A stretch of 48,114 bases of DNA from a phage. The DNA is taken from sequence record OZ346203.1, one strand, 5' to 3'. Shown in pieces: positions 1 to 45,510 of this stretch; position 1 is the first letter of the stretch; every line of letters starts with the position of its first letter. Both the position numbers and the translations under genes were made by a program. The notes beneath the pieces are model-generated. The model was not told the origin of the DNA and made no database searches. It worked only from the letters and a program-made list of their open reading frames with translations.

Positions 1-1569
1 ATGATCATATGGGAAGATTTGACGGCGGCGCAAAAGCGAGCCATTAAAGAAATCAGTGAGCATTCATTCGAAAAGATGATCAGAATCTGGTTCCAGTTAT
101 TGCAGGGGCAAAAATTCCAGAGCAACTGGCATTTTAGCTTATTGTGCAGTGAGGTAGAGAAGATCATCAATGGAGAGTCGCAGAATGTGATTTTCAACAT
201 TACGCCAGGTAGCGGTAAGACTGAGATTTTCTCGATCCACATGTCACCCTACGCGTCATTGAAAAGCCGGAAAGTGAGAAACCTTAACCTTTCGTTTAGT
301 GATGGCCTTGTCCAGCAAAACAGCAACCGGATAAAGGAGATTATTGGTTCTCCTGAGTGGCAAGAGCTATGGCCAGGAAAACTGGCAAAGGCGAGCGCCA
401 AAGATCTGATAGTCACCGAAGGCGGCAAGGTTAAATTGCAAGTTAACTCACGTTCTATTGGCGGCCAGGTAACAGGTTTGCGTGGTGGCTATATGGACGA
501 TGGTTTTACTGGTATGCTGGTTCTTGATGATCCAGACAAGCCGGATGATATGCTTTCTAAGGTAAAGCGTGAGGCTATCCACATGCGGTTAAAAAACACA
601 GTGCGATCGCGTCGAATGAAAGACACCACGCCGATTGTTATGGTGCAACAGCGACTACACGTTAATGATTCCACCTGGTTTATGCTTAATGGCGGGATGG
701 GTGGTATCGAGTTTAAAGTTGTGAGCATTCCGGCGCTGGTTACGGAAGAATACCGCGAGACGCTTCCTGATTGGTTGAAGCCTGAATTTGATCGTGATGT
801 GCTGTCAAGTAAGCCAGTGATGATAGATGGCGTTGCTCATTATTCATTTTGGCCTGCAAAGGAAAGCGCGGAGGAATTGCTTGCATTGCGCAATGCAGAT
901 CCTTACACGTTCGCCAGCCAATACCAACAGCAACCAATCGCGCTTGGCGGGAACGTGTTTAAAACAGAGTGGTTCCAGTATTACGGCAACGGCGAAAAAT
1001 GCGCGCTACCAAAACCGGATCGCTTTGAATACACATTTATTACTGGAGATACCGCGCAGAAGGCCGGAGAGCTTAACGACTATTCAGTTTTTTGTTATTG
1101 GGGGATGTATAAGAATCGCGTTTACTTCATTGATGGCATTCGCGGAAAGTGGGAAGCGCCGGATCTTGAATTAAATTTTATTGCCTTCGTTAACCAGTGT
1201 TGGAAGCGCAATAAAGAGTGTGGCAGCTTGCGACGTATCCACATTGAGGATAAGGCCAGCGGCACGGGCTTGATTCAGGGGGCCAAAAAGAAGATACCGA
1301 TTGATATAAATCCCGTTCAGCGAAGTAATGACAAGGTAACGCGCGCAATGGACGCCGCACCAGTGATGAGGGCCGGACGTGTGGCACTGCCAGAAAATCA
1401 CCCCATGCTGCCTGAGATACTGGCAGAGGTTGCAGCATTCACTTTTGATGATTCTCATCCCCATGATGATATTGTCGATAATATAGTTGATGCTGTTAAC
1501 GTCGAAATGAATTTGGCAGATGATCCGGTAGCAAGGATGAAAAAGTTGGCAGGTCTACGCAATAAATAG
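1..1569 (+). CDS. terL: terminase large subunit
   Basis: 522-aa ORF starting at ATG nt 1; Walker A-like PGSGKT and Walker B-like LVLDDPD, acidic nuclease-type C-terminal half; sits between terS (window end) and portal. Confidence 0.85.
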   Translation: MIIWEDLTAAQKRAIKEISEHSFEKMIRIWFQLLQGQKFQSNWHFSLLCSEVEKIINGESQNVIFNITPGSGKTEIFSIHMSPYASLKSRKVRNLNLSFSDGLVQQNSNRIKEIIGSPEWQELWPGKLAKASAKDLIVTEGGKVKLQVNSRSIGGQVTGLRGGYMDDGFTGMLVLDDPDKPDDMLSKVKREAIHMRLKNTVRSRRMKDTTPIVMVQQRLHVNDSTWFMLNGGMGGIEFKVVSIPALVTEEYRETLPDWLKPEFDRDVLSSKPVMIDGVAHYSFWPAKESAEELLALRNADPYTFASQYQQQPIALGGNVFKTEWFQYYGNGEKCALPKPDRFEYTFITGDTAQKAGELNDYSVFCYWGMYKNRVYFIDGIRGKWEAPDLELNFIAFVNQCWKRNKECGSLRRIHIEDKASGTGLIQGAKKKIPIDINPVQRSNDKVTRAMDAAPVMRAGRVALPENHPMLPEILAEVAAFTFDDSHPHDDIVDNIVDAVNVEMNLADDPVARMKKLAGLRNK

Positions 1570-1595
1570 CACTAATTGCTAAAAAGTTATATAAT
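1566..1595 (+). promoter_or_regulatory. degenerate copy of the conserved element plus TATAAT after terL
   Basis: ATAGCAC-TAA-TTGCTA with TATAAT only 8 bp downstream; overlaps terL stop TAG. Confidence 0.3.
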
Positions 1596-6165: not shown

Positions 6166-6192
6166 CTGATAGCATAAAAAAACATTGCACGT

Positions 6193-6209
6193 TTAACAAA
6201 AAGTGCTAT
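6193..6209 (+). promoter_or_regulatory. reverse-oriented copy of the conserved element (TTAACAAAAAGTGCTAT) upstream of major capsid gene
   Basis: same 17-mer as the early promoters but in opposite orientation to the downstream gene; followed by terminator and RBS. Confidence 0.35.
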
Positions 6210-6215
6210 CATCTA

Positions 6216-6241
6216 GGCCGTTACATTTAACGGCCTTTTTT
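6216..6241 (+). terminator. intrinsic terminator upstream of capsid gene
   Basis: GGCCGTTA/TAACGGCC stem plus T6. Confidence 0.6.
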
Positions 6242-6255
6242 ATGGAGGAAGCAAA

Positions 6256-7227
6256 ATGGCTAAAAAATATGATGAACTAGATGCTACGATTGTAGCGAAT
6301 CATTTGCAGATTCAGGGTGTTAAGTCCGACGCTTCTGATATGGGTATTTGGACCGCTCAAGAGCTACACAAGATCCGCTCTACCGCATACGAGAAAGAGT
6401 ATCCGGCAGGTTCCGCGCTTCGCGTATTCCCTGTAACAAACGAGCTTTCTGATACTGATAAGACTTTCGAGTATCAGACTTTTGATAAGGTTGGCTACGC
6501 GAAAATTATCGCCGACTACACCGATGATCTGCCGACCGTGGACGCGCTGATGACTTCTGAGTTTGGCAAAGTGTTCCGCCTGGGTAACGCTTATCTGATC
6601 TCCATTGATGAGATTAAAGCAGGTCAGCGAACTGGCAAGAGCCTGTCAACTCGCAAGGCTAACGCTGCGCAAAATGCACATGATCAGTTGATTAACTTCC
6701 TGGTGTTCAAAGGTTCCAAGCCTCATAAAATCGTTTCCGTTTTCAATCACCCTAACCTTACGAAAATTGTTTCTAAAGGGTGGATGAGCCAGGACGGCAA
6801 CACCAAGTTCCCGGAAGTGGCAAGCGATGAACTGGAGGCTGCAATCGAAACGATCGAGGAAGTAACCAAAGGTCAGCACCGCGCGACTAACATCCTGATC
6901 CCGCCGTCCATGCGTAAAGTCCTGACGGTTCGAATGGAAAATACCACTGAAAGTTATCTTGAATACTTCCAGAAGCAAAACGGCGGTATCACTATCGACT
7001 CTATCGCAGAGCTTGAGGATATTGACGGCAAAGGTACGAAAGGTTGCTTGGTTTACGAAAAAGATCCAATGAACATGAGCATTGAGATTCCAGAAGCGTT
7101 TAACATGCTTCCGGCGCAGCCAAAAGACCTACATTTCAAGGTTCCTTGCACTTCCAAGTGTACTGGCCTTACGATTTATCGTCCGTTTACGATGGTGCTT
7201 ATTACTGGCTTGAAAAAAGCTGGGTAA
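6256..7227 (+). CDS. major capsid protein (putative)
   Basis: 323 aa; strong GGAGG RBS; flanked by intrinsic terminators on both sides, typical of a highly expressed capsid gene. Confidence 0.7.
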   Translation: MAKKYDELDATIVANHLQIQGVKSDASDMGIWTAQELHKIRSTAYEKEYPAGSALRVFPVTNELSDTDKTFEYQTFDKVGYAKIIADYTDDLPTVDALMTSEFGKVFRLGNAYLISIDEIKAGQRTGKSLSTRKANAAQNAHDQLINFLVFKGSKPHKIVSVFNHPNLTKIVSKGWMSQDGNTKFPEVASDELEAAIETIEEVTKGQHRATNILIPPSMRKVLTVRMENTTESYLEYFQKQNGGITIDSIAELEDIDGKGTKGCLVYEKDPMNMSIEIPEAFNMLPAQPKDLHFKVPCTSKCTGLTIYRPFTMVLITGLKKAG

Positions 7228-7238
7228 TTAGATAACAT

Positions 7239-7268
7239 GGGGAGCCTTAAGGGTTCCCCCTTTTTTTT
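7239..7268 (+). terminator. intrinsic terminator after major capsid gene
   Basis: GGGGAGCC/GGGTTCCCC stem plus T8. Confidence 0.65.
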
Positions 7269-7286
7269 ATTTATGGAGTACACAAA

Positions 7287-7553
7287 ATGAGCAAAACTTT
7301 AAAACTTAAAGTAACTGGCGTTTGCATGATTATTATGGACGGTAAGCGTTATCATCCTGGCGATGAAATTGAAATTGAATCCGATCGCATTAATGATTCC
7401 GCAGTTGAATACCTGATCGCTCGCGGTGATGTGGAAGTTAAAGACAATTCCGAAATTAACGAGCAAATCAAGGCGAAAGCGGAGAAGAAGCGCAAAAAAG
7501 ATCCTACCGAGGGTAAGAGCCGCAAAGAGCTAGAGGATGGCGGCGAATATTAA
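7287..7553 (+). CDS. hypothetical protein (head module)
   Basis: 88 aa; GGAG RBS; lysine-rich C-terminus. Confidence 0.5.
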
Positions 7554-7599
7554 TAATTGGGGCGCTTATGCGCCCTTTGTCACATCTGGAGAAAACAAA

Positions 7600-8019
7600 A
7601 TGGTAGATGAATTTTACACAGACGCTGAAATCATGCAGCAAATCGTAAAGTTAGCCCCACCAATGCAACAAGTTGATCCCGATTTAATTGTGGCATGGAT
7701 TGAGCTTGCTAAAGAGTTTGTTTGCAAAAAACGGTTTAAAAACTCATACCCGAAAGCGGTTGCGCTTTACACTCTTCACCTTATGACCTTAGACGGGGCA
7801 ATGAAACAGGAAGGTGAAAGCGTAGAAAGCTACTCCCGCCGCGTTGCCTCGTTCACTCTGACTGGTGAGTTTAGTCAGACGTTTGATCGAATTTCTTCCG
7901 ATACAAGCGGAAAGCAGATCCGACAAACGCCGTGGGGCAAAATGTACGAAGTGTTAAACCGTAAGCACGGTGGCGGCTTTGGCCTTGTGACTGGATTGCG
8001 CCGGAGATGCTGCCGATGA
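7600..8019 (+). CDS. putative head-tail connector/adaptor protein
   Basis: 139 aa from ATG 7600 (after hairpin 7558-7576 and GGAG RBS); track start 7537 lies upstream of the hairpin. Confidence 0.4.
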
Positions 8020-8387
8020 ACTACAATGAGATTGCAAGAATGGCTACGGCTGGGATTAACTTTTTCAGCGATGCTAACGGTATGTTTAAGTGCATCACGC
8101 AGCAGGGAGGGGTTGAGATTATCGGCGGAGAGGAAGTTACCAAGCCGGAGATTTCAGTGATGATAAAGGGGCTTGTTAGATCTCCGAGGACTAGAGAGGT
8201 TGACGGTGAAACAATCCGAGTAACCGACAAGTTGGGGATATTCACCAATGAAACTGAGATCAAAAATGGTTATCAGATTGAAGTTGATGGCGAACGTTAT
8301 GTTGTCGTTGAAGCAAGACCAGTCAGGCAGACTAACATCACGGCGGCTTATCGTCCAATATTAAGGAGGATTGCTGTGCATGGCTGA
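8016..8387 (+). CDS. putative head-tail joining protein
   Basis: 123 aa; ATGA overlap with upstream stop; GGAG RBS. Confidence 0.4.
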
Positions 8388-8823
8388 TAATTATAAGATC
8401 AGGGAATTTCACGGTGATATAAGCAGGTGGATTGATTCAGTAAGCAGCGGCCTTGTTGATTGCGTTGAAATGTTCGCGACAAACGTCCACGAGGATCTTG
8501 TAAATCGCTCGCCAGTTGATACGGGCCGATATAAAGCCAACTGGCAGATAACAGCAAACAAGCCGCCGCTATATGCGCTCAACCAATACGATCGCGATGG
8601 TGGTAAAACCATTGCAGAAGGTAAGCGAGCAATATATGCAATCATGCGTGGCGGTGGCGCGGTGCGGTCAATCTATTTTTCAAACATGCTCATTTACGCC
8701 AACGCGCTTGAATACGGGCATTCAAAACAAGCGCCGTCCGGCGTACTTGGAATCGTGGCGGTAAAGCTGCGATCTTATATGGCTAAGGCAATAAAGGATT
8801 CGAGGGCAAAAAATGCACTATGA
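8380..8823 (+). CDS. putative tail completion / neck protein
   Basis: 147 aa from ATG 8380 with AAGGAGGA RBS (track start 8371 is TTG). Confidence 0.4.
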   Translation: MADNYKIREFHGDISRWIDSVSSGLVDCVEMFATNVHEDLVNRSPVDTGRYKANWQITANKPPLYALNQYDRDGGKTIAEGKRAIYAIMRGGGAVRSIYFSNMLIYANALEYGHSKQAPSGVLGIVAVKLRSYMAKAIKDSRAKNAL

Positions 8824-9214
8824 TTTAATGTTGGCGGCAAGAAAGGCGCTGGCGGCTGAATATGAATCACGATTTAAGATAGCCTATGAAAACGTTGATT
8901 TTGTGCCGCCTGGAGATGGTTCTATGTGGTTAAAATTTAACTACATGGAAGTAGACACGGATCGCATATCTCTTGATAGAAAATGTGTTTCTTATATCGG
9001 TTTGGTTCAGGTTGGGATTGTCATTCCTCCTGGCGGTGGCACTGATAAAGCGCGTTTGCTGGCTAAAGAGATTGCGAGATTTTTCTATGATGGTAGAATG
9101 TTTGAAACTGGCTATATTAGCGAGGGGGCAAACGTCCACGCATTACTAAAAAGTGAAACAGGTTGGTTCTTGCCGATCCGTTTCAGTGTTAGGCTTGACA
9201 CAAAGGAGGAATAA
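8813..9214 (+). CDS. putative tail terminator / tail completion protein
   Basis: 133 aa; overlaps upstream stop; immediately precedes major tail protein. Confidence 0.4.
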   Translation: MHYDLMLAARKALAAEYESRFKIAYENVDFVPPGDGSMWLKFNYMEVDTDRISLDRKCVSYIGLVQVGIVIPPGGGTDKARLLAKEIARFFYDGRMFETGYISEGANVHALLKSETGWFLPIRFSVRLDTKEE

Positions 9215-9216
9215 TC

Positions 9217-9879
9217 ATGCACTTGCCTAATGGTTCTCAAATTTTCATCGGCGTTAATATGGGTGAGCCAATTAGCGCGACTCAAATCAGCAATGCTGAT
9301 AATCCTGTTTTTACAACCAAAAACACTCAAAGCATCAAAAAAGGCGCTTATGTTCTTATTGAAACATCTTCTTGGGGCAAACTTGTTAGTCGAGTGCTTC
9401 GAGTTAAGGAAGTATCAGATAATGTAAGTGTTACTCTTGAGGGTGTTAGCACTAAAGATACAAACGTATTTCCAGAAGGACAGAACACAGCAACTTTCCG
9501 AGAAGTGAAATCTTGGGTAGAGGTTCCTTGCGTGCAGGATCTTGCGCAGGACGGCGGCGAGCAACAGTATTACACTTATCAGTGTTTGGCTGATGACCAA
9601 GAGCAGCAGTTGCCGACCTACAAGAGCGCCGTTTCTCTCACCTATACTTTCGCGCATGAGTATGATAATCCGATTTATCCGATCTTGCGCGAGGCTGAGG
9701 AATCCGGCGACGTTACCGCCTTGCGTATGTACGTGCCGAAAGCTAAAGAGATGCGTTGCTGGGCTGGCGTGTTGTCTTTTAATGACATTCCGCAAACCAC
9801 CATGAACGAAATTGAAACTGTTTCCCTTTCCGTATCTCTGAAAGGTCGATTCACGTTCTTACCTTCTGACGTTAAGTAA
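9217..9879 (+). CDS. major tail (tube) protein (putative)
   Basis: 220 aa; AAGGAGG RBS; followed by strong terminator; directly upstream of G/GT chaperone and tape measure. Confidence 0.7.
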   Translation: MHLPNGSQIFIGVNMGEPISATQISNADNPVFTTKNTQSIKKGAYVLIETSSWGKLVSRVLRVKEVSDNVSVTLEGVSTKDTNVFPEGQNTATFREVKSWVEVPCVQDLAQDGGEQQYYTYQCLADDQEQQLPTYKSAVSLTYTFAHEYDNPIYPILREAEESGDVTALRMYVPKAKEMRCWAGVLSFNDIPQTTMNEIETVSLSVSLKGRFTFLPSDVK

Positions 9880-9884
9880 AACAA

Positions 9885-9906
9885 GGGGCGTTGCGCCCCT
9901 TTTTTC
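9885..9906 (+). terminator. intrinsic terminator after major tail gene
   Basis: GGGGCG/CGCCCC stem plus T6. Confidence 0.65.
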
Positions 9907-9947
9907 ATTCCTGTAAAATCAATCTATCAAATAAATTAATTCCACTT

Positions 9948-9964
9948 TTAACAAAAAGTGCTAT
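9948..9964 (+). promoter_or_regulatory. reverse-oriented copy of the conserved element abutting the RBS of chaperone G
   Basis: TTAACAAAAAGTGCTAT immediately followed by AAGGAG and ATG 9979. Confidence 0.35.
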
Positions 9965-15828: not shown

Positions 15829-15852
15829 TACCCGCCTTGCGCGGGTTTTTTT
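15829..15852 (+). terminator. intrinsic terminator after gpI-like gene
   Basis: CCCGC/GCGGG stem plus T7. Confidence 0.6.
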
Positions 15853-15901
15853 GTGCCTTTATAATGTTCAAACCAAGAAACAGCACAAAAGGTTAAAAGT
15901 C

Positions 15902-18900
15902 ATGGCTAAACATATGATAAGCGGCAGTAAGGGCGGAAGCAAAAAGCCATACGTGCCAAAAGAGATGGAAGATAACCTGATCTCGATAAACAAGATTAAA
16001 GTTTTGCTGGCTGTATCTGATGGCGAGTGCGATCCAGATTTCACGTTGCGTGATCTTTATCTTGATGATGTTCCTGTAATTGCCAGCGATGGCACTGTTA
16101 ACTATGAGGGGGTAACGGCTGAATATAGGCCAGGCACACAGACGCAAGATTACATCCAGGGGTTTACTGACACATCAAGCGAGGTGACAGTTTCGCGAGA
16201 TATTACAGCAGACAATCCCTATATTATCTCTGTAACAAACAAAAATCTTTCCGCAATCAGAATCAAGATTCTGATGCCAACTGGCATAAAACAGGAGGAT
16301 AACGGCGATCTTGTTGGTGTAAGGGTTCAATATGCCGTAGATATGGCTGTTGATGGCGGTTCTTATAACGAGGTTATGAGAGATGTAATTGACGGCAAGA
16401 CAAGATCAGGGTATGACCGCAGCAGAAGGATTGATCTTCCTAAGTTTGAGGAGCGCGTTTTAATCAGAGTTAAGCGACTGACTCCAGATAGCACATCTTC
16501 AAAGGTGACTGATAAAATCAAACTGCAAAGTTACGCTGAGGTTGTGGATGCAAAATTCCGTTATCCTCTGACTGGACTTGTATTCGTAGAATTTGACAGC
16601 GAATTGTTTCCTACGCAAATCCCTAACATTTCTATAAAAAAGAAATGGAAGATTATTAATGTGCCAAGCAACTACGATCCAATATCAAGAGAATATCACG
16701 GGTCATGGGATGGTACTTTTAAAAAAGCGTGGTCAAATAATCCTGCATGGGTTCTTTATGATCTGGTGACGAATCAGCGTTATGGACTTGACCAGCGAGA
16801 GTTAGGAATACAGATCGACAAGTGGAGCTTATACGAGGCAGGTGTTTACTGTGATCAGAAAGTTCCAGACGGCAAGGGCGGGACAGAGCCTCGCTACCTA
16901 TGCGATGTGGTGATCCAGAATCAAGTAGAGGCTTATCAGCTAATCCGTGACATTTGCTCAATCTTTCGCGGAATGAGCTTTTGGAATGGAGAGAGCTTAT
17001 CAATCGTGATTGATAAACCGCGCGATCCATCATACGTGTTTACTAATGAAAACGTCATCAACGGTGATTTTCAGTACACAGCAGCAAGCGAAAAAAGCAT
17101 GTACACGCAATGTAATGTGACGTTTGACGACGAACAAAACATGTATCAACAGGACGTCGAGGGTGTTTTTGATACTGAGGCGGCATTACGATTTGGATAC
17201 AATCCAACAAGCATTACAGCGATCGGGTGTACACGCAGGAGCGAAGCGAATCGTCGCGGTCGGTGGGTTTTGAAAACAAACCTTAGAAGCACTACTGTAA
17301 ACTTTGCTACTGGACTGGAGGGGATGATTCCATCAATAGGTGATGTGATTGCTATCGCTGATAATTTTCAGAGCAGCAACCTAACGTTAAACCTATCGGG
17401 CCGAGTGATGGAAGTTTCAGGATTGCAGGTTTTCGTTCCGTTTAAGGTTGATGCTCGTCCTGGTGATTTTATTATCATCAACAAGCCGGACGGCAAGCCA
17501 GTTAAGCGAACGATCTCAAAGGTGAGCGCAGACGGAAAAACCATTGAGTTAAATATTGGATTTGGTTTTGATGTTAAGCCTGATACTGTTTTTGCGATTG
17601 ACCGTACTGACCTTGCGTTGCAGCAATACGTTGTGACAACTATCAGCAAGGGTGATGACGAAAACGAGTTTACCTTTTCAATCACGGCTGTGGAGTACGA
17701 TCCGAACAAATACGACGAGATTGATTATGGCGTAAACATTGATGACAGGCCAACTTCAATTGTTCAGCCTGACGTGATGGTAGCGCCTGAGAACGTGCAG
17801 ATCTCTTCTTATTCTCGCGTCGTGCAGGGTGTAAGCGTTGAAACTATGGTTGTGTCGTGGGATAAAGTGCCTTATGCATCGCTGTATGAAATGCAGTGGC
17901 GTAAAGGTGATGGAAACTGGCTGAATACACCACAGACCGCAAACAAAGAAGTTGAGGTTGAAGGTATTTATTCAGGTAACTACCAAGTAAGGGTGAGATC
18001 TGTTTCTGCTTCCGGTTCTACGTCGCCGTGGTCAAAGATTGCAACCGCCACCCTGACAGGTAAAGTTGGCGAGCCAGGAGCGCCGATTAATCTTACAGCT
18101 TCTGATAATGAAGTTTTTGGCATTCGTGTTAAATGGGGTATGCCGGAAGGATCAGGCGATACGGCTTACATTGAGCTTCACCAATCGCCGGATGGGACGG
18201 TGGAAAACTCAAGTTTGCTTACGCTGATCCCGTATCCTCAATATGAGTATTGGCATAGCACGTTACCAGCGGGTCAAGTTGTATGGTATAGAATCCGTAG
18301 CGTTGACAGGATCGGCAACGTTTCCGGCTGGACTGACTTTGTTCGCGGCATGGCGTCAGATGATGTTGAATCTGTTTTAGGCGACATTCTGGACAAGATT
18401 TTTGATACCGAAGCGGGTCAAGAAATCAAAGAGAACGCCATAGACAGTGCAAACAAAATCAAAGACCAGGCGCAATCAATCATCCAGAACGCATTGGCAA
18501 ACGATGCCGATGTGAAGTGGACGCGAGTACAAAACGGAAAGCGTAAGGCTGAATATGGTCATGCACTGGAGCTTATTGCTACCGAAACGGAGGCGCGAGT
18601 AACTCAAATCGAAGAGTTAAAGGCGTCAATTGATGAAGATATAGTTTCAAGTATCAAAACCGTTCAGGAAGCGATTGCCAACGAATCAGAGACGCGAGCT
18701 ACTCAAGTGCAGCAGCTTGATTCTAAATTTACGAAGGAAATAGACGGCGTAAAACGAGATACGGCTGCAAGTATTGGCGAGGTAAGGCAAACAATTGCCA
18801 ATGAATCAGAAGCGCGCGCCCAGGCAGTTCAGCAGCTTGACGCCAAGTTTACGAAAGAGATAAACGACCTTGACGAAGTTATCAAGACCGAAGTCGAGGC

Positions 18901-20703: not shown

Positions 20704-20746
20704 ACTATACACGATCCGACAAGCTGGGTTTAGCAAAAAGTGCTAC
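20704..20746 (-). promoter_or_regulatory. promoter-like module upstream of cor operon (element variant GTAGCAC-TTT-TTGCTA, 21-bp spacer, TATAGT)
   Basis: TATAGT 20704-20709 on the minus strand, 31 nt upstream of cor ATG. Confidence 0.5.
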
Positions 20747-23460: not shown

Positions 23461-23491
23461 AAAAAGCCCCGCATGTGCGGGGCATTTTTTT
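23461..23491. terminator. bidirectional terminator between ssb and tail fibre gene
   Basis: GCCCCGCA/TGCGGGGC hairpin with A5 upstream and T7 downstream. Confidence 0.65.
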
Positions 23492-26120
23492 AGTTAAGAG
23501 TAGTAGGATTGTTGATTAGCTTTGACAGTAAATCTTTTAATTCTGCAACCTCATTTTCAAGTTTGCTTATGCGATCATCACTTTCACGGCATACTTTCAC
23601 AAGCAATCCAGTAACAGCACCATAATCAACAGATAAGAATCTTTCCTCGCCAACTAACTGATTTCCATCCTTAGTTGGACCAGCAAGATCCGTGTACTGA
23701 GTGAATCCGCCAACAGCTTCCGGTATTGCCTCCATTACTTCTTGAGCAATTACCCCAGCATAAGGTAAACCATTCTCCTTAAGCGTGTAAGTGTATCCGC
23801 TCATTTTGCGCAATGATTCAGTCGCGTTTTCAATCTCCTCAATGTTGTCCTTAAGATCTCTGTCAGATACTTGATTGAATGCCGTCGCATTTACAGGGCC
23901 GTTAACTTGAAGATGCTTTGAGTTATCTTTATTTAACTGACCGTAAAAAATCCACCCAGGGCCGTTATCGAAAGCCCACTCAATAACAGACGGTCTATCT
24001 GACCCGTTCCCCCACAATTTGAAACTTGCAGGGTGTGATGAGTTTCCGTCGTTCTGCATATTGAAATACTTACCACTCGGTCGGTCTATCTCTAAACTCG
24101 CCGCCTGTACATATGCTTTTCCCGCAAAGTCTTTCGTACCTAACACAACCCCAGAATCGATAAGTTCAACCTTGCTTTTCGTTATGTCATTTAGAAATAA
24201 CGCACTCGTTCCAGTATCTTTACCTAAAAACCAAAGACGTGTGCCTGCGGAGTTGTACCCTGTTACGTGCAGCGGTTGGTTGTTTGTTGATGCTGTTCCG
24301 TCGATACGAAAACCGCCATTAGCGGTTGTAACTTTAATGCTTGGTACGGTCATAGCGAATGTGCCACTGGCCGCAAGGCCGTTATACGCGATCAGCTTGT
24401 TGTCATACGAAAGGCCGCCATCATCACGCAGCTGTAGCACTTTCTGCGACGTGCGGTTGCGAATGCCAACATCCGTGCCTCCTACAAACATTTCGACGAT
24501 TCGATCACCGCTTTTAGCTCTCACGTAAGCGTTATATTCCGGCGACGACCCCGCGTTATACAACTCGTACCATTTAGACCAGATGCCAGTAGTCGCGTTA
24601 CTAAGCCATCGCATAAAGCGACGCCCGCTATTGTATCCTGTAAACGTCTGTATGCAGCTTTTAGGATCGTTAGCGCCAGTGCGCTGAACAAGTAGACAAC
24701 CTGCTTCCTGAACGGGATAATTACGCTCCGGCGTTGCGTTGGCAGATAAGCTAGTATAATAAAATCCAGCCTTATCACCCTGAAGGATGTTAAGGTCTTC
24801 ACTAACCAACGTTGCCCGGCGCTCATGCATGACCTGAAGGTTTGCGCGCGCTCCCTGGTCGTTCGATGCTCCTGTCCCGCCGTCACCGATCGCCACGTCA
24901 CCATTAGCACCCAGCTTCGCCAGTTCAATGGCACCCACATTTCCAGATGAGCCGTTAATCGCGGCATTGTTTCCAGCGAAAACCTTCACGCGAGAGGTCA
25001 GGTAGTCAACGTTAAACGCAAAAAATGTGTCACCAGCACCCCCGCACACCCCAGGACCATATTTGAACGGCGTCATCTCGCCCGAAGGGAACTGAGAAAT
25101 ATCATCAACGCGCCAAAAGCCGCCTTTGACCGAATCGCGCAACCGCTTGAGCATATCCCTTACGCCAGTCGGCGCAGGTAATGTTACACCCGCATACGGC
25201 ACTCTATTTTGAGCTTCTGAACTTTCAGCAGCAGCCGCTGCGCGATCAGCCTCTGTTTTAGCCTTGTTTGCACTGTTTGCAGCATTAGTTTCCGATGTTT
25301 TAGCGTTTGTTTCAGAAGTCTTCGCGGCACTAGCCGAGTTAGCAGCATTAGTTTCCGATGTTTTAGCCGCATTCTTACTTGCATTAGCTGCATTTTCAGA
25401 TGCTTTGGCATTAGTTTCCGCTGTTTTAGCGTTTGTTTCAGAAGTCTTCGCGGCACTAGCCGAGTTAGCAGCATTAGTTTCCGATGTTTTAGCCGCATTC
25501 TTACTTGCATTAGCTGCATTTTCAGATGCTTTGGCATTAGTTTCCGATGTTTTAGCGTTTGTTTCAGAAGTCTTCGCGGCACTAGCCGAGTTAGCAGCAT
25601 TAGTTTCCGATGTTTTAGCCGCATTCTTACTTGCATTAGCTGCATTTTCAGATGCTTTGGCATTAGTTTCCGATGTTTTAGCGTTTGTTTCAGAAGTCTT
25701 TGCAGCACTAGCGCTCTGTTTTGCTGATTCAGCGCCTTGTTTCACCTGATTCACAAGATCTTTCAACCCATCAAGATCGAAATCTCTAAAAAATTCAAGC
25801 GCGTCAGCAATCTCCGTTTCCTTGCTTTGATAGTAACGCAGTGTTTCCGCTACGTCCTGCGCCAGCCCGTCAACCGTCAACGAGTCATGAAGCAAGATCA
25901 GGTAATTTGTCTTCTGGACTACCGCGCCGCCAGTAGTAATTGCGCGAATGCTTGTATCGCTAATCACCTCTGTAATCACAGCAGCTTGCAAAGGTTGAGT
26001 AAGAAAGAAAATAGTTGCACCTGGGCGAATCAATGTTAATTGCTCACGCCATTTTGTATCGTAACCAGTTACATAACCTTGCGCGTCCATAGACGCTTGG
26101 CCTTGTCTGTAAATCGCCAT
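23490..26120 (-). CDS. tail fibre protein (Stf-like) with C-terminal intramolecular chaperone (peptidase S74-type) domain
   Basis: 876 aa from ATG 26120 with AGGAGG RBS (track start 26144 is GTG inside the conserved element); SETNAK-type repeats; C-terminal S74-type chaperone segment. Confidence 0.8.
25270..25700. repeat. 126-bp tandem repeat (about 3.3 copies, 63-bp sub-period) inside tail fibre gene
   Basis: near-identical units starting about 25318, 25444, 25570; encode 42-aa repeats rich in [20 protein letters not shown]. Confidence 0.85.
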
Positions 26121-26137: not shown

Positions 26138-26153
26138 ATAGCACTTTTTGCTA
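26138..26153 (-). promoter_or_regulatory. copy of the conserved element abutting the RBS of the tail fibre gene
   Basis: minus-strand TTAGCAAAAAGTGCTAT then AGGAGG and ATG 26120. Confidence 0.35.
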
Positions 26154-26185
26154 ATGACAATGCAGATAATAGCATTTTCAAGTGC

Positions 26186-27210: not shown

Positions 27211-27687
27211 TTAGCTATTCGTGCTGTTATCACCTTTGTAGAATCGTCCGCCTGGTTCGTAGTCTGAATTTTTGACTACGCGCAACATTTCGTATTTGTC
27301 GCAACGGGTAGTAAGGGGCTTACCGTTAGAGTCAAACCGCAGGTCTGGACGACAAAACGAGGCGCGGTATCCTTTGCATCCATTATATTTGTAGTCGTTA
27401 TGCACTTTTTGTGCTCCGGCGGCTGAAATCATACCACGCTTTCGCCATTGGTTAACTACTTGCTGAGATACGCGCAGACGTCGAGCCATAGCAGGAACAC
27501 CGCCGTAATACTCGATCAGAATGTCAAGGCGAGATTTCAGGCTTGCTTTTACCTCATCTCGCAGGATAAGAAATCCGGTTCGGTGTTTTCGTGGCTTTTT
27601 GTCTTTACCTCGTCGCGTTCCGTTGTTACCGTTAATAGTGCGCTTGTCGATCTCACCCGTAGACACTGCAATTCGTGCATCTTTCAT
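27211..27687 (-). CDS. putative HTH DNA-binding protein (Cro/YdaS-like)
   Basis: 158 aa; GAGGTG RBS; basic N-terminus; HTH-like MARRLRVSQQVVNQWRKRG; divergent from helicase. Confidence 0.45.
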   Translation of the reverse strand: MKDARIAVSTGEIDKRTINGNNGTRRGKDKKPRKHRTGFLILRDEVKASLKSRLDILIEYYGGVPAMARRLRVSQQVVNQWRKRGMISAAGAQKVHNDYKYNGCKGYRASFCRPDLRFDSNGKPLTTRCDKYEMLRVVKNSDYEPGGRFYKGDNSTNS

Positions 27688-27698
27688 CTAGTCACCTC

Positions 27699-27742
27699 AT
27701 AGCATTTTTTGTTAAAACAGTTTATTGTAATGAGTCTATTAT
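27699..27742 (+). promoter_or_regulatory. long-spacer promoter-like module (ATAGCAT-TTT-TTGTTA, 22 bp, TATTAT) upstream of helicase
   Basis: conserved element 27699-27714; -10-like TATTAT 27737-27742; ATG 32 nt downstream. Confidence 0.55.
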
Positions 27743-29772: not shown

Positions 29773-30191
29773 TGGCTATAACTGATAAAGGAGATTATCT
29801 TGAGTTTTACGAAAGAGATCCAACCGACACAAGAAGGGAGGTTAATCACCAGATAGATAGTTTTCAGTGGTTGACTTATGCTCATCCTTACTTGCTGGCG
29901 TGGCATACGGTAAACGAGAATGAGAAGTCTAAAGTAACGGCTATGATTGATCAGCAGTCCGGCTTGGTTAAGGGAGTAAGCGATTTCATCATCCTGATTG
30001 GTTTAAACGGAAAATACCCCTTTGCAGCGATTGAGATCAAACGAGTGAATAAATCAGGCAAGGGGAAAGCATCACCAGTCAGCGATGAGCAAAAGGCTTT
30101 TTTGCGTCGCGTTCGCAGCTTAGGAGGATTCGCTGCGGTAGCCTACGGATTCAATCAGTTTAAGTTGGCTATTGAATACATGCTTAAATAG
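29772..30191 (+). CDS. VRR-NUC domain nuclease (putative)
   Basis: 139 aa; PD-(D/E)XK-like D...E.K core (SDFIILI...AIEIKR); TAATG overlap with helicase. Confidence 0.6.
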   Translation: MAITDKGDYLEFYERDPTDTRREVNHQIDSFQWLTYAHPYLLAWHTVNENEKSKVTAMIDQQSGLVKGVSDFIILIGLNGKYPFAAIEIKRVNKSGKGKASPVSDEQKAFLRRVRSLGGFAAVAYGFNQFKLAIEYMLK

Positions 30192-30231
30192 CACTTTTTG
30201 TTAAAACTGGCGCAATGGATTGCGCCATAAT
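30188..30231 (+). promoter_or_regulatory. long-spacer promoter-like module upstream of dam
   Basis: ATAGCAC 30188-30194 (contains stop TAG), TTGTTA 30198-30203, 22-bp spacer with inverted repeat GGCGCAAT/ATTGCGCC, CATAAT 30226-30231, ATG 39 nt downstream. Confidence 0.55.
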
Positions 30232-31000: not shown

Positions 31001-31258
31001 ATGAAAAAAGAGAGAAGCGTTTATTTAAATGAAACTGGCGAATGGTTGTTATTTCGCGCTATGGTGTGCGATGCACTTGATAAAAATCCTAACGTGAAAA
31101 AGATGATTGATTGCGATCCGTGGGAATTTTCAAGCGCATTAGATATGAGCTTTGAGGAGACAAGAAAACTCCCGCTTGAAAAATGGCACGAACAAATCAG
31201 AAATGACATGCAAGAGTTTGTCGATTCGTGGAATTTTCAGCACGGAATGATCCACTAA
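31001..31258 (+). CDS. hypothetical protein
   Basis: 85 aa; its stop is embedded in the conserved element TAATAGCAC. Confidence 0.5.
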   Translation: MKKERSVYLNETGEWLLFRAMVCDALDKNPNVKKMIDCDPWEFSSALDMSFEETRKLPLEKWHEQIRNDMQEFVDSWNFQHGMIH

Positions 31259-31301
31259 TAGCACTTTTTGTTAAAACGCCCGGCCTAGTGTCGGGCATAA
31301 T
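31258..31301 (+). promoter_or_regulatory. long-spacer promoter-like module upstream of 31334 operon
   Basis: ATAGCAC 31258-31264, TTGTTA 31268-31273, spacer with inverted repeat, CATAAT 31296-31301. Confidence 0.55.
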
Positions 31302-31513: not shown

Positions 31514-31745
31514 GCAAGGAAGAGATGCAGTATGGAATCACGCTAAAGAATGCGGAATAGCCGACGATATAAAGAAGATCGCGCAATACTTTGATATTGC
31601 AGATGTGAGCATAATTAGCGGCGACAAGATGACTTTCCTCAAGGAAAGGCCGCGAAAAATGGTAAGAGTTCCAGCAGTTCCAACAAAAATTGATTTCAAA
31701 GAGGCAATGGCTAAAATCCGAGAGCCTCGCAAATATTATAAATGA
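31503..31745 (+). CDS. hypothetical protein
   Basis: 80 aa from ATG 31503 (internal Met of track ORF 31455-31745), coupled to upstream stop. Confidence 0.45.
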   Translation: MKVEQGRDAVWNHAKECGIADDIKKIAQYFDIADVSIISGDKMTFLKERPRKMVRVPAVPTKIDFKEAMAKIREPRKYYK

Positions 31746-31839
31746 GGATAGTTATCATGTGGCGCTTGTTTGTTCTACCGTTACCCGTTATCATCGCTGT
31801 TACAGTTATGTACCATATAGTGATGAGATAGGTAGCAGA

Positions 31840-32955
31840 ATGAAAAATGTAAAAATTACAGATGAGCAATTCAAGATCGAACGGGCGGCAGGTAAGACAT
31901 ATAAACAGATCGCTCAAGAGTACGGAATGAATGTGAGAAGCGTCGAGCGTCGCGCGGCGCGTCTTGCAAAGCAAGGGCAGTTATCGACCATCGGGGCGCC
32001 TGGTTTTGGTGTTCATGGTGAGTCAGTAATGACTGACAAAGAAGGAAATATAATCCTCAAGTGGACCAAAACCAGCAAGGATAAAGAGCAATTAGAGGCA
32101 CTGATGCGCGCAGCAATGGAGGCATTTAGCGAGGAAGTGCCGCGATTAGATCCAGTTCCATTGCAGGAGCGTAACTATAATGAAACGCTTTCATTGTATC
32201 CGATCTTTGACATGCACTTAGGCGCTATGGCCCATAAGCACGAATGCGGCGAAAATTGGGATACTGCGACGGCAGAGCGCGTTATGAATAACTTTATCGA
32301 CTATGCTTTGATGTGCGCACCGGACAGCGAAAAGGCTGTTATCCTGATTGGTGGCGATATGCTGCATAGCGACGGCCTGGAGGCGGTGACACCTGCAAGC
32401 GGTCACGTACTTGATCAAGATAGCCGATATGCAAAATTGGTTTACGTTGCAATACGTGCAGTGCGCCGCGCAATTAATAAAATGCTGTTAAAGCATAAAC
32501 ATGTTGAGGTCCAGGTCGTAGAGGGTAATCACGACCAATCAGGAATGATTTGGCTACGCGCAGCAATGGCGGCAGCATATGAGAACGAGCCGCGCGTTTA
32601 CGTTGATGTTTCTCCTCGCGTTGTTCACCACACGCAATACGGAAAAACTTTCCTTGCGTACCATCACGGGCACACAGTGCGCAAACCTGAGACTTTGCTA
32701 ATGATGTGCGCGTCAGATTGGCGGGAGGACTTCGGAAACTCAAAAACTATGTATGCGCACGTAGGGCACTGGCATCACCAGACTGTGACGGAAACGTCGC
32801 TTGGCATCGTTGAGGTGCATAGCACCCTGGCGGCAAAAGACGCATACGCCGCGCGCGGTGGCTGGAGATCTCGACGCCGTGCAGCGGTTATCATTTACGA
32901 CAAAGAGCATGGAGAAGTGGGGCGATTTGTTCACTATCCAGAAATGATGAATTGA
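31840..32955 (+). CDS. metallophosphoesterase (Mre11/SbcD-like motifs) with N-terminal HTH-like domain
   Basis: about 371 aa from ATG 31840 (31847 alternative); motifs DMHLG, GGDMLHSDG, GNHDQ, HHGH, GHWHH; N-terminal HTH-like stretch. Confidence 0.5.
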   Translation: MKNVKITDEQFKIERAAGKTYKQIAQEYGMNVRSVERRAARLAKQGQLSTIGAPGFGVHGESVMTDKEGNIILKWTKTSKDKEQLEALMRAAMEAFSEEVPRLDPVPLQERNYNETLSLYPIFDMHLGAMAHKHECGENWDTATAERVMNNFIDYALMCAPDSEKAVILIGGDMLHSDGLEAVTPASGHVLDQDSRYAKLVYVAIRAVRRAINKMLLKHKHVEVQVVEGNHDQSGMIWLRAAMAAAYENEPRVYVDVSPRVVHHTQYGKTFLAYHHGHTVRKPETLLMMCASDWREDFGNSKTMYAHVGHWHHQTVTETSLGIVEVHSTLAAKDAYAARGGWRSRRRAAVIIYDKEHGEVGRFVHYPEMMN

Positions 32956-34474: not shown

Positions 34475-34518
34475 AATATACCCGACACTAGGCCGGGCGT
34501 TTTAACAAAAAATGCTAT
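34475..34518 (-). promoter_or_regulatory. long-spacer promoter-like module upstream of 34438 gene
   Basis: minus-strand ATAGCAT-TTT-TTGTTA, 22 bp, TATATT; shares an identical 31-nt stretch with the 31258 copy. Confidence 0.55.
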
Positions 34519-36636: not shown

Positions 36637-36680
36637 ATTTTAACGGCCCAATACTACCCCGTTTTGTCAAAAAGTGCTAT
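36637..36680 (-). promoter_or_regulatory. long-spacer promoter-like module upstream of the 526-aa gene
   Basis: ATAGCAC-TTT-TTGACA, 22-bp spacer containing hairpin GGGCCGT/ACGGCCC, TAAAAT. Confidence 0.5.
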
Positions 36681-37310: not shown

Positions 37311-37354
37311 ATTATGCCAGGTTTTTACACCTGGCTTTTAACAAAAAGTGCTAT
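37311..37354 (-). promoter_or_regulatory. long-spacer promoter-like module upstream of 37281 gene
   Basis: ATAGCAC-TTT-TTGTTA, 22-bp spacer with hairpin CCAGGTG/CACCTGG, CATAAT. Confidence 0.55.
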
Positions 37355-39228: not shown

Positions 39229-39272
39229 AATATACCATTCAGGAGCACATCGTTTTTAACAAAAAGTGCTAT
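39229..39272 (-). promoter_or_regulatory. long-spacer promoter-like module upstream of 39197 gene
   Basis: ATAGCAC-TTT-TTGTTA, 22 bp, TATATT, then conserved leader ACACCCATCGACAAC...GAGGATTT. Confidence 0.55.
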
Positions 39273-39734: not shown

Positions 39735-39778
39735 AATGTACAGGAATGCGAGGATTGAGTTTTAACAAAAAGTGCTAT
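39735..39778 (-). promoter_or_regulatory. long-spacer promoter-like module upstream of 39701 ORF
   Basis: ATAGCAC-TTT-TTGTTA, 22 bp, TACATT, then conserved leader ACACGCATCGACAAC...GAGGATTT. Confidence 0.55.
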
Positions 39779-41038: not shown

Positions 41039-41082
41039 AATGTACCCGATCAGACGGCCTGAGTTTTAACAAAAAGTGCTAT
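41039..41082 (-). promoter_or_regulatory. long-spacer promoter-like module upstream of leftward early operon
   Basis: ATAGCAC-TTT-TTGTTA, 22 bp, TACATT; ATG of 41004 gene 34 nt downstream. Confidence 0.55.
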
Positions 41083-43585: not shown

Positions 43586-44176
43586 ATGAAACGAGACATT
43601 ATCATCCTTAATGGGCCGCCAGGTTGCGGGAAGGACACTATTGCAGCTTACCTAACGGGCCATCGTTACCCAGCGGTTAAGGCATCATTCAAGCAACCTA
43701 TGTTCGACATTGCTTTTTCTATGCTTGGCCCGACTCGATACGATGAATTTATGGGCCTATACAACGACCGAGAGCAAAAAGAAAAGCCTCAAGTTATCTT
43801 AGGTGGCAAGTCGCCTCGACAATTCATGATCTGGATTAGCGAGGATGTAATGAAGCCAGTTTTTGGAGATCACTATTTCGGGCGTCGAATGGTTGAAGAG
43901 ATTCACGAGATGTACCGAGATTTGTCGGTTGTGATCAGTGATGGCGGATTCCCCGAAGAAATCAAGCCGCTCGTTAAGGCGGGGCATGAGGTGCATATTT
44001 GCCGATTGCATCGCGACGGCTTCACGTTTGCTGGCGATTCGAGAGATTATATTGACCTGAGCGGTTATCACTATCGAATCCATCACTATGATTTCCACTT
44101 GCAGGACGGCAAGCCGGAACTGGCTGTAAGCGAGATCGTCAATGCAGTCAAATGGAAGCACACACAGATTAAATAG
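43586..44176 (+). CDS. P-loop nucleotide kinase (T4 gp1 dNMP-kinase-like)
   Basis: 196 aa; Walker A GPPGCGKDT at N-terminus; architecture resembles T4 deoxynucleoside monophosphate kinase. Confidence 0.65.
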   Translation: MKRDIIILNGPPGCGKDTIAAYLTGHRYPAVKASFKQPMFDIAFSMLGPTRYDEFMGLYNDREQKEKPQVILGGKSPRQFMIWISEDVMKPVFGDHYFGRRMVEEIHEMYRDLSVVISDGGFPEEIKPLVKAGHEVHICRLHRDGFTFAGDSRDYIDLSGYHYRIHHYDFHLQDGKPELAVSEIVNAVKWKHTQIK

Positions 44177-44216
44177 CACGAATTGCTAAACGCGGGGTTA
44201 TCGGCCCCGCTATAAT
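44173..44216 (+). promoter_or_regulatory. long-spacer promoter-like module upstream of 44247 gene
   Basis: ATAGCAC-GAA-TTGCTA, 22-bp spacer with hairpin GCGGGG/CCCCGC, consensus TATAAT 44211-44216. Confidence 0.55.
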
Positions 44217-45176: not shown

Positions 45177-45467
45177 ATGGCAAACAAAACTTACCGCAAA
45201 CTACTGGTTAACGCTTTTGAAAACATCGCGCAGTGTAACAAGTGGAACGACTCTAAACACTCGCCAGTCACAATGAAGCGCGCCGGATTCAAAAATGCTC
45301 GTTCATGGGCGCGAGCTTTCGCAGCTTGCTATATGCCGGATGGTGGACTAGGAGCGATGAACGACTTCTTGATCAACATGATAGAGGAAGCGGCGCGAGA
45401 GGATCGACCGCTGACACAGCGAGATTTTGACGACTTCGCGCGCGATGAGCTTTACTATCTGAGCTAA
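45177..45467 (+). CDS. hypothetical protein
   Basis: 96 aa; stop TAA fused to the conserved element. Confidence 0.5.
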   Translation: MANKTYRKLLVNAFENIAQCNKWNDSKHSPVTMKRAGFKNARSWARAFAACYMPDGGLGAMNDFLINMIEEAAREDRPLTQRDFDDFARDELYYLS

Positions 45468-45510
45468 TAGCACTTTTTGTTAAAACTTCCGCAAGGGCAT
45501 TTGATAAAGT
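45467..45510 (+). promoter_or_regulatory. long-spacer promoter-like module upstream of 45543 operon
   Basis: ATAGCAC 45467-45473 fused to stop TAA, TTGTTA 45477-45482, 22-bp spacer with hairpin AAGGGCA/TGCCCTT, TAAAGT. Confidence 0.5.

Follow-up and report, generated by a model that had tools for sequence, protein, structure and literature searches.

Why should a short sequence that points along with transcription at the early promoters of a phage be turned around directly upstream of late structural genes? The question is raised by sequence record OZ346203.1, a phage DNA of 48,114 nucleotides (the window, i.e., the whole stretch analysed here), in which a 17-base element, TTAACAAAAAGTGCTAT, occurs exactly at 6193-6209 (+) before the capsid gene and at 9948-9964 (+) before a chaperone gene; a third copy, on the minus strand at 26138-26154 before the tail-fibre gene, has one mismatch (TTAGCAAAAAGTGCTAT). 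A first-pass annotation of the window had reported these three copies, and all are indeed present, with the corrections that the third is mismatched and ends at 26154 instead of 26153. It was also right that the three point opposite to the approximately 11 copies at early promoters, and its suggestion of a protein-binding site reused in late regulation is the best reading, with the protein site standing in a different geometry at the late genes. A marbox is an asymmetric 20-bp site to which the AraC/XylS-type regulators MarA, SoxS, or Rob bind as monomers, RamA being the corresponding regulator in Klebsiella and Salmonella. In our estimate, the balance tips slightly toward the element being a marbox, at which host MarA, SoxS, or Rob is predicted to activate the early promoters and to damp the late ones.

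Distribution of the element in T1-like phages

Over 7 kb, the window shares 94-96% identity with Escherichia phages Poky, FritzSarasin, and tonnikala, and it is assigned to the T1-like virulent siphophages (Drexlerviridae, Tempevirinae, Warwickvirus). By comparison with the annotation of FritzSarasin, the structural genes fill the first ~19.5 kb on the plus strand, the tail-fibre gene (23490-26120) lies on the minus strand, and the remaining genes are those of replication, methylase, and lysis together with many small early genes. A scan of the window, FritzSarasin, T1, TLS, Rtp, and KP36, taken from four subfamilies or genera, found 17-23 copies of the element in each. At three or fewer mismatches, 15 copies were counted in the window, where 0.32 were expected and no more than 2 turned up in 100 shuffles; the strong copies of the window are all intergenic or at gene ends.

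The element is, by its sequence, the published 21-nt intergenic repeat of Drexlerviridae, and the repeat itself is thus already known. Phage TLS was described to have 21 copies of a 21-nt direct repeat, aaATAGCACnnnTTGnTAAAA, 18 of which are intergenic, oriented with transcription and ~76 nt upstream of start codons; the repeat was also noted in T1, Rtp, and Rogue1, only three sigma-70-like promoters were found in TLS, and the function was left open, with a stoperator, an enhancer site, or an UP element being suggested (German et al. 2024, PMC11447400). All copies in the window match this repeat in sequence, and the early ones also fit in direction and distance, whereas the capsid, chaperone, and tail-fibre copies depart from the TLS description in their reversed orientation and in their distance to the start codon, which is 0-46 nt.

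Two observations on the distribution may be added. For the upstream gene, the stop codon is very often either the TAG within ATAGCAC or a TAA whose last base is the first A of the marbox (window 1567-1569, 30189-30191, 37351-37353, 39269-39271, and others), and gene ends therefore systematically overlap the activator site of the next promoter. In an exact-pattern scan of viral contigs, multi-copy carriers were essentially only ~50 kb contigs of the T1-like family; single exact matches of ATAGCACNNNTTGNTAAAAC were found in larger viral contigs of 60-175 kb (L198, L216, L218, L232, and L248), whose size does not suggest a T1-like phage.

Fit of the element to the marbox consensus

The marbox consensus derived from chromatin immunoprecipitation in E. 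coli is gcannwwntgnnaaa (PMC12052159), and a 20-bp consensus of 2002, quoted in PMC2453137, is A(notG)RGCACRWWNNRYYAAA(notG)N. The element with three further bases, ATAGCACtttTTGyTAAAAc (phage 20-mer form, ATAGCACTTTTTGTTAAAAC), fits the marbox consensus at its specified positions, the single departure being T at position 8 in the commonest variant; marbox coordinates given hereafter are those of this 20-bp unit, i.e., the 17-base element plus 3 nt. A scan of the window with gcannwwntgnnaaa finds 15 exact matches, where 1.38 were expected and 100 shuffles gave at most 4; each of the 15 is a copy of the element. T1, TLS, Rtp, KP36, and FritzSarasin each have 14-21 matches against 0.3-0.6 expected. 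Strong copies in the window have 0-2 mismatches to the 20-bp consensus; those at the tail-fibre gene and at a J-like tail-tip gene have one mismatch to gcannwwntgnnaaa.

Bases were counted at each marbox position in 77 class II-type promoters (see below) from five non-duplicate genomes. GCA is present in 77/77, G13 in 76/77, and AAA in 74-76/77. Positions 9-10 read TT or AA and are W in 76-77/77, and at position 14 there are 39 C and 36 T. Variation in the phages hence falls on the degenerate positions of the consensus and stays within the W and Y classes. As a predicted binding site, the marbox is well supported by sequence and geometry; our literature search found no paper linking the repeat or any T1-like promoter to the marbox.

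Geometry of the early promoters

Read on the strand of the gene, the early layout consists of the element, a variable stretch, TAnAnT, ~5 nt, cATCGAAACGAAAC, a Shine-Dalgarno sequence, and ATG. Of 92 cases scored, 75 have 18 nt between the 20-bp marbox and the -10 hexamer, a distance also found where the hexamer is CATAAT. The ~11 early copies in the window are forward and lie over a missing -35, with their centre at about -40/-41: among the 77 promoters, the -35 position has a mean of only 1.56 matches to TTGACA, the -10 hexamer has a mean of 4.8/6, and 34 (44%) possess the TG of an extended -10. Class II sites of the Mar/Sox/Rob regulon are likewise forward, overlap the -35, and are centred at ~-41/-41.5 (PMC12052159 being one source); class II promoters have no recognizable -35, with a reported mean of 1.9 matches. 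The early copies, together with a helicase promoter described below, thus have the class II geometry, namely forward, at ~-41, and 18 nt from a sigma-70 -10. Those in the window are as follows.

20727..20746, minus strand: marbox of class II type by consensus match and geometry, with -10 TATAGT at 17 nt
30188..30207, plus strand: early class II marbox, CATAAT at 18 nt; holds the stop codon of the upstream gene
31258..31277, plus strand: early class II marbox, CATAAT at 18 nt
34499..34518, minus strand: early class II marbox, TATATT at 18 nt
36661..36680, minus strand: early class II marbox, TAAAAT at 18 nt
37335..37354, minus strand: early class II marbox, CATAAT at 18 nt
39253..39272, minus strand: early class II marbox, TG and TATATT at 18 nt
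39759..39778, minus strand: early class II marbox, TACATT at 18 nt
41063..41082, minus strand: early class II marbox, TACATT at 18 nt
44173..44192, plus strand: early class II marbox, GAA variant ATAGCACGAATTGCTAAACG, which fits both consensus forms without a mismatch; TATAAT at 18 nt
45467..45486, plus strand: early class II marbox, TG and TAAAGT at 18 nt

The 22 nt between TTGTTA and TAGATT that the first-pass annotation had noted are not a long -35/-10 spacer. This distance equals the 18-nt marbox-to--10 distance of class II promoters, with TTGnTA being marbox positions 11-16, and TTGnTA as a -35 with a 22-nt spacer would be half a turn out of register.

The consensus of the UP element, from -59 to -38, is nnAAAWWTWTTTTnnAAAAnnn. 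It is conceivable that no dedicated factor acts on the element at all, i.e., that an UP-like sequence and TTGnTA form an intrinsic module for RNA polymerase that multiplied as promoter cassettes were duplicated, and that the reversed copies at late genes are by-products that happen to supply the TGnTAT of an extended -10, or neutral remnants. UP-like enhancement was indeed among the possibilities listed for the TLS repeat (German et al. 2024, PMC11447400), and the TG motifs and -10 hexamers counted above make some basal activity plausible. The 22-nt distance is, however, half a turn off for sigma region 4 as well, and the sequence misfits the A/T-rich UP consensus: inspection of the aligned promoters showed an invariant GCAC where T-runs are expected and unconserved coding sequence from -59 to -51. 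The late copies bear further on this point, as described below.

Other candidate sites were also rejected. The sigma-54 -24/-12 promoter (TGGCAC-N5-TTGC) bears a superficial likeness to TAGCAC-N3-TTGC, but its GG/GC dinucleotides and spacing misfit, and a conserved sigma-70 -10 follows the element. None of the consensus sequences of IHF, Fis, Lrp, DnaA, CRP, and ArcA, compared by eye, fits.

We also noticed that in 33 of the 77 class II-type promoters (~43%), a 5-8 bp inverted repeat flanks the -10, as in GGGGTA-tcttgcTATAGT-TACCCC (examples are window 39190-39272(-) and 44173-44246(+), and T1 1450-1530 and 2269-2340); transcripts from these promoters then start with the conserved cATCGAAACGAAAC leader before the Shine-Dalgarno sequence. 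Elsewhere, a G+C hairpin ending at the -10 makes up the 18-nt spacer and resembles a terminator of the upstream gene. The repeat bracketing the -10 could be a signal for mRNA 3' ends or processing, or an aid in promoter melting. The early copy at 42855-42871 (-), furthermore, has lost one T of its T-run compared with FritzSarasin 46472-46491 (ATAGCACTTTTGCAAAA versus ATAGCACTTTTTGCAAAA), and its two recognition elements are therefore out of register; it may be a naturally disabled marbox before an otherwise intact -10 and leader.

Capsid gene

Around the late copies, a simple promoter scanner with a threshold of 9/12 made no call in the capsid, chaperone, or tail-fibre region, and the promoter calls at these sites therefore rest on conservation. 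The features at the capsid gene are the following.

6190..6209, minus strand: 20-bp marbox ATAGCACTTTTTGTTAAACG, backward relative to the capsid gene and containing the 17-mer at 6193-6209
6185-90 and 6207-12, plus strand: sigma-70 promoter of the capsid gene, with -35 TTGCAC, 16-nt spacer, TG at 6204-05, and -10 TATCAT
6215..6236, plus strand: hairpin with T-run, downstream of the capsid promoter and upstream of the Shine-Dalgarno sequence (-13.5 kcal/mol, z = -3.4)

The capsid marbox matches gcannwwntgnnaaa exactly and has one mismatch to the 20-bp consensus. Among 79 related loci with a capsid identity of 54-98%, the copy always stands in the identical place and in the reversed orientation, as it does in 69/69 distinct upstream regions, 43 of which have a strict match. 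The promoter scores 8/12 and hence fell under the threshold of the scanner; nonetheless, its -35 is kept as TTGCAC, TTGAAC, TTGACC, or TTGACG, with the 16-nt spacer and the TG, down to 54% capsid identity, its -10 reads TATCAT, TATATT, or TATTCT in relatives, and the GenBank record of KP36 annotates a promoter at the homologous site. Relative to the start, expected at ~6219, the marbox spans about -29 to -10 of TTGCAC-16-TATCAT and so fills the spacer; its GCAC falls on the TG motif, and the -10 begins with its ATA.

According to the first-pass annotation, the reversed copies would provide extended -10 sequences (TGCTATnnn), so that each of them would itself be a late promoter for the adjacent downstream gene. 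At the capsid gene this claim stands, since GTGCTATCAT contains the TG and TATCAT and a conserved -35, which had been missed, lies 16 nt upstream; it does not hold at the other two genes, as shown in the following sections. That the copy supplies the TG and part of the -10 here also speaks for an intrinsic polymerase module. The spacer part of the copy, TTTAAC or TTTAGC, is however kept across distant relatives where sigma-70 needs no sequence, which argues for selection on the marbox. As a backward promoter, the capsid copy was rejected, for neither a conserved -10 nor TAnnnT at 18 nt was found in the window or in relatives.

The layout is the marbox-in-core-promoter type of rob, which is reportedly repressed via a backward marbox between -35 and -10, and of pbpG, and repression of the capsid promoter would be predicted from it. 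At pbpG, a marbox in the spacer goes with repression (PMC12052159 among the sources).

The terminator-like hairpin with a T-run that had been noted after the capsid copy is present at 6215-6236. As the inferred start falls in its 5' arm, read-through transcripts would form the terminator and the capsid promoter's own transcripts would not. At the portal gene (1590-1623), as at the capsid gene (6207-6236), the inferred start is in the 5' arm of a terminator hairpin, and only read-through transcripts would therefore form the full hairpin.

Chaperone gene

At the chaperone gene, two promoters of opposite direction are predicted.

9945..9964, minus strand: 20-bp marbox ATAGCACTTTTTGTTAAAAG, backward relative to the chaperone gene and adjoining its Shine-Dalgarno sequence at 9965-70
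9891..9919, plus strand: forward promoter of the chaperone and tape-measure genes, with TTGCGC at 9891-96, 17 nt, and TAAAAT at 9914-19
9921..9926, minus strand: TAGATT, the -10 of a class II promoter directed backward; 18 nt separate it from the marbox and 1 nt from the -10 of the forward promoter
9872..9914, minus strand: predicted antisense RNA of ~40 nt, ending at the bidirectional terminator 9883-9901 (putative transcript)

The copy adjoins AAGGAG, with the ATG at 9979, as had been described. The idea that TGCTATAAG is an extended -10 fails: the hexamer, TATAAG, lacks the T at -7, no conserved -35 precedes it, and the start would come after the Shine-Dalgarno sequence. The gene has a conserved promoter of its own upstream, TTGCGC-17-TAAAAT, with an expected start at ~9926 and a -35 that lies within the major-tail terminator (loop and 3' arm); in 19 distinct upstream regions compared, TTGCGY-17-TAnnAT is kept in 17, with or without the marbox. 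The marbox, which is present in 11 of the 19 and in T1, spans +20 to +39 of this forward promoter and shows the class II geometry only on the minus strand, i.e., away from the chaperone gene.

The first-pass annotation also pointed to an antisense promoter here, and this proposal has gained support. TTGTTA, 22 nt, and TAGATT are found on the minus strand, and TAnnnT stands at exactly 18 nt from the marbox in 11/11 marbox-bearing regions and in T1, with seven different hexamers among the former (TATATT, TAGATT, TATCAT, TAGCAT, TATCTT, TAGAGT, and TACAGT) and TAAGAT in T1; in relatives without a marbox at this site, no TAnnnT hexamer was found at that position. The minus-strand start of the backward promoter would be at ~9914. 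A single nucleotide always separates the two -10 hexamers, and either inferred start is placed inside the opposing promoter's -10, so that two polymerases cannot bind together. The terminator at 9883-9901 was called on both strands, with a fold of -15.6 kcal/mol (z = -3.3).

In Rtp, the marbox after the major-tail terminator (16303-16322) is forward and belongs to a full class II promoter for an additional small gene, rtp34 (16380-16766); at this site, the marbox is hence reversed in the window and T1 and forward in Rtp. Late promoters nested in terminators, with TTGCGC in the loop and the -10 17 nt downstream, are seen at both the chaperone gene (9883-9919) and the J gene (15830-15865).

Tail-fibre gene

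The tail-fibre gene, on the minus strand, has the following features.

26138..26157, plus strand: 20-bp marbox ATAGCACTTTTTGCTAATGA, backward relative to the tail-fibre gene and 2 nt from its Shine-Dalgarno sequence at 26135-30
26166..26174, minus strand: TGCTATTAT, promoter of the tail-fibre gene with an extended -10; it follows directly on the primase terminator (26211-26194)

The copy adjoins AGGAGG, and the tail-fibre ATG is at 26120, both as previously noted. Here again the proposed extended -10, TGCTATTTA, is not tenable, because TATTTA has no T at -7 and no conserved -35, and the start would fall within or after the Shine-Dalgarno sequence; the gene's own promoter, TGCTATTAT (26174-26166), lies further upstream, and its TGnTAnAAT is conserved across 70 distinct relatives. 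In relatives, furthermore, the hexamers adjoining the reversed copies vary (TATCAA, TATTTA, and TATCAC) without a conserved -35. That each reversed copy is in itself the promoter of the gene downstream is therefore very improbable in our view, the capsid copy notwithstanding.

The marbox is located at ~+2 to +21 of the tail-fibre promoter and is found in the backward orientation in 22 of the 70 relatives, which belong to several lineages including T1 and Rtp. The candidate of a reverse promoter was rejected, since neither the window nor the relatives have TAnnnT at 18 nt. Neither the capsid nor the tail-fibre copy thus has the class II geometry in either direction. Across the three genes, the reversed copies are, as judged from the aligned relatives, phylogenetically conserved in position and orientation. 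Those at the chaperone and tail-fibre genes are conserved yet supply no usable promoter element, and taken together with the capsid spacer and the misfit to the UP consensus, this makes an element served by polymerase without any dedicated factor quite unlikely.

Regulator, helicase, portal, and tail-tip genes

A fourth copy, at 27699-27715 (minus), is also reversed and adjoins the Shine-Dalgarno sequence of a gene for a Cro-like regulator. The features at this and two further sites are listed here.

27699..27718, plus strand: marbox shared by two interlocked promoters, those of the helicase and Cro-like regulator genes
27737-42, plus strand: -10 TATTAT of the helicase promoter, with the marbox forward and of class II type; ATG at 27775
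27751-46 and 27729-24, minus strand: promoter of the Cro-like regulator gene, TTGGAG, 16 nt, TACAAT
1566..1585, plus strand: marbox before the portal gene, 4 nt upstream of TATAAT at 1590-95, at about -36 to -17
15880..15899, plus strand: marbox-like site ACAGCACAAAAGGTTAAAAG in the 5' untranslated region of the J-like tail-tip gene, including the Shine-Dalgarno sequence; ATG at 15902

The marbox at 27699-27718 is backward at +1 to +20 of the regulator promoter, and this arrangement is kept in every genome examined (T1, TLS, Rtp, and KP36 among them); the site would follow the same logic as the chaperone site. The portal marbox contains the terL stop codon and is followed by a hairpin at 1597-1619, and the J-gene site, which is conserved in FritzSarasin, T1, and TLS, lies at +9 to +28 of a promoter with TTGCGC at 15837-42, 17 nt, and TATAAT at 15860-65. 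As the copies of the portal (1566-1585) and J (15880-15899) genes are forward, reversal at late genes is no universal rule.

Since the element at the chaperone, tail-fibre, and regulator genes of the window lies between the inferred start and the Shine-Dalgarno sequence, ending 0-2 nt before the latter, and since this abutment is kept in many relatives, one might suppose that the reversed copies act as RNA, UUAACAAAAAGUGCUAU in the 5' untranslated region being a translational operator or enhancer. The capsid copy is, however, upstream of its inferred start and would go untranscribed from its own promoter, early copies would yield the complementary RNA, the distance between element and Shine-Dalgarno sequence varies from 0 to 13 nt among relatives, and no conserved RNA structure involves the element. 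We give this possibility very little credence.

A more serious alternative is that the element is the operator of a phage DNA-binding protein, most plausibly the Cro-like helix-turn-helix regulator itself (27211-27687, -, T1 gp23 family), which would activate early or middle promoters from ~-42 and repress late ones as well as its own gene, the likeness to the marbox being coincidence or mimicry. The regulator, which has a helix-turn-helix of Cro/YdaS type, is kept in T1, TLS, Rtp, and KP36, each time with a copy adjoining its Shine-Dalgarno sequence, a layout typical of autoregulation; moreover, the TTGCTA variant of the element is TAGCA-N5-TGCTA, an inverted repeat of 5 bp whose half-sites are one helical turn apart. 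Position 14 is nonetheless C or T (39 and 36 of 77) without a compensating change at its dyad partner, G4 being invariant, and this uncompensated polymorphism led us to reject a symmetric dimer operator as the primary reading. Also, the invariant C7 and T11 are asymmetric, which fits a monomeric site and not a symmetric dimer, and the mar marbox of E. coli has the same pseudo-symmetry. The proposal leaves both the marbox match at every specified position and the -10 distance identical to that of micF unexplained, and we consider it unlikely, if worth keeping in mind.

At the 3' end of the regulator gene (window 27211-27230, -), there is a weaker marbox, ACAGCACGAATAGCTAATGA, also seen at T1 35976, TLS 35221, and KP36 36028; behind it come a hairpin, with a -10-like hexamer inside and a T-run at its end, and shortly thereafter the primase gene. 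At this place, a class II-type promoter seems to be superimposed on a terminator. Separately, the GenBank record of KP36 notes a Sigma70_r4_2 Pfam match in gp63, a homologue of T1 gp16 ('DNA repair exonuclease'; window 31690-32955).

Possible binder and mechanism

When MarA and Rob were compared by phmmer --max with six-frame open reading frames of five phage genomes, the best E was 0.7, and no homologue was found. Because the phages have no detectable MarA-like protein, host Rob, MarA, or SoxS are the likely binders of the marboxes. The reversal at late genes would be the Mar/Sox/Rob regulon's known orientation/position code, with position outweighing orientation here.

In the proposed mechanism, a host monomer of MarA/SoxS/Rob type on the forward marboxes would recruit polymerase to early promoters by class II activation, whose structural basis has been resolved for micF, and the same protein on or just after late sigma-70 core promoters would hinder polymerase. 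The bound protein would stand between the -35 and the extended -10 at the capsid gene, in a rob-like layout, and directly after the transcription start at the tail-fibre and Cro-like regulator genes. At the chaperone and regulator/helicase sites, it would in addition activate the interlocked opposing promoter; at the chaperone gene, an activated backward promoter would keep polymerase off the late promoter and yield a short antisense RNA reaching to the bidirectional terminator. Lifting of the block might come about through titration of the factor by replicating genomes, each with ~17 sites, or through the Cro-like regulator, both of which are conjecture. The full scheme, in which Rob/MarA/SoxS/RamA on marboxes turn all early promoters on and those of the capsid, chaperone, fibre, and regulator genes off until titration switches to late expression, is put forward only tentatively, and we regard it as more doubtful than probable.

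Several points weigh against the marbox and its host regulators acting in this way. Position 8 is T in 48/77, the commonest variant, where the 2002 consensus has R, and the second recognition element of the commonest variant is TAAA, as in the mar marbox, versus CAAA in micF. The capsid copy is degenerate (ATATCACGAATCGTTAAGCC) in 26 of the 69 distinct relatives, mostly Webervirus-like ones, and two late copies are forward, so that orientation alone fails to split early from late. A marbox in a promoter spacer need not repress, since at flgBP2 (-16 to -30, sigma-28) MarA activates. MarA and SoxS are scarce in unstressed cells and Rob is largely in inactive aggregates; T1-like phages nonetheless grow well on laboratory K-12. 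The Cro-like helix-turn-helix protein is encoded by the phage, with its gene start adjoining a copy, and could be the binder instead. In addition, a literature search found no relevant start-site or RNA-sequencing data on T1-like phages, the one match concerning T5-like phages only.

If the marbox reading is true, a virulent coliphage family depends on a host regulator of antibiotic and oxidative stress for early expression, and phage growth would be tied to host physiology and antibiotic exposure, which bears on phage therapy in combination with mar/sox-inducing drugs. One asymmetric site would then be an on- or off-switch purely by position and orientation, and the near-absence of sigma-70 promoters in conventional searches of these genomes would be explained. 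Were titration to operate, disarming of the host Mar/Sox/Rob response would be a side effect, with ~17-20 high-affinity sites per genome. The marbox reading also turns the open question of the repeat into direct experiments with existing reagents.

Comparison with known systems

The closest counterpart of the early promoters is that of E. coli micF, which depends on MarA/SoxS/Rob/RamA as a class II promoter and whose complexes with SoxS, Rob, and RamA are available from cryo-electron microscopy. Read from the K-12 genome, it consists of ACAGCACTGAATGTCAAAAC, 18 nt, TAGAAT, 7 nt, and +1; its marbox is forward, equals the phage consensus at 15/20 bases, is centred at ~-41, and has 18 nt to the -10 and no -35. 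It differs in being a single chromosomal stress promoter, whereas the phage has at least 11 such promoters in 48 kb driving early genes of a virulent phage; also, the phage copies are closer to the consensus than micF, and their activator dependence is a prediction. E. coli fumC likewise has a forward marbox, with an ambiguous -10.

For the capsid promoter, the counterpart is rob, in which the ATAGCA end of a backward marbox-like site is also fused to an extended -10 (...AGCAAAAAATGCTATTAT in rob and TTAACAAAAAGTGCTATCAT at the capsid gene). The capsid copy is the better marbox of the two, with one versus four mismatches in the 20-mer, and it differs further in that the site is degenerate in Webervirus-like relatives of the phage. 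Repression of rob by MarA and SoxS is taken from Schneiders & Levy (2006) as reported in a citing paper. In the K-12 sequence upstream of rob (4635311-4635521), we noticed a forward marbox-like 20-mer, AAAACACTGAATGCTAAAAC, directly before the backward site, in which ACAC replaces GCAC.

Middle promoters of T4 have a MotA box centred at -30, with the phage supplying both MotA and AsiA. The likeness lies in an activator box that replaces the -35 at a fixed distance from a sigma-70 -10 in many promoters; in the T1-like phages, by contrast, no matching phage activator is detectable and the box is that of a host regulator. The stoperators of L5 are similar in their many asymmetric copies in short intergenic regions with an orientation bias, but they serve a temperate-phage repressor that blocks elongation anywhere, while the present element keeps a fixed distance from the -10 in a virulent phage. 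A stoperator of L5 type was accordingly rejected for this virulent family, with its sites at 18 nt from the -10 and a Cro-like helix-turn-helix protein as the only one of its kind present. Compared with the account of the TLS repeat (PMC11447400), finally, the reversed late copies, the 18-nt distance to the -10, and the marbox identity are unreported there. The promoters described here would thus belong to known classes, namely class II and marbox-repressed, and it is the identification of the repeat as a probable marbox that is new.

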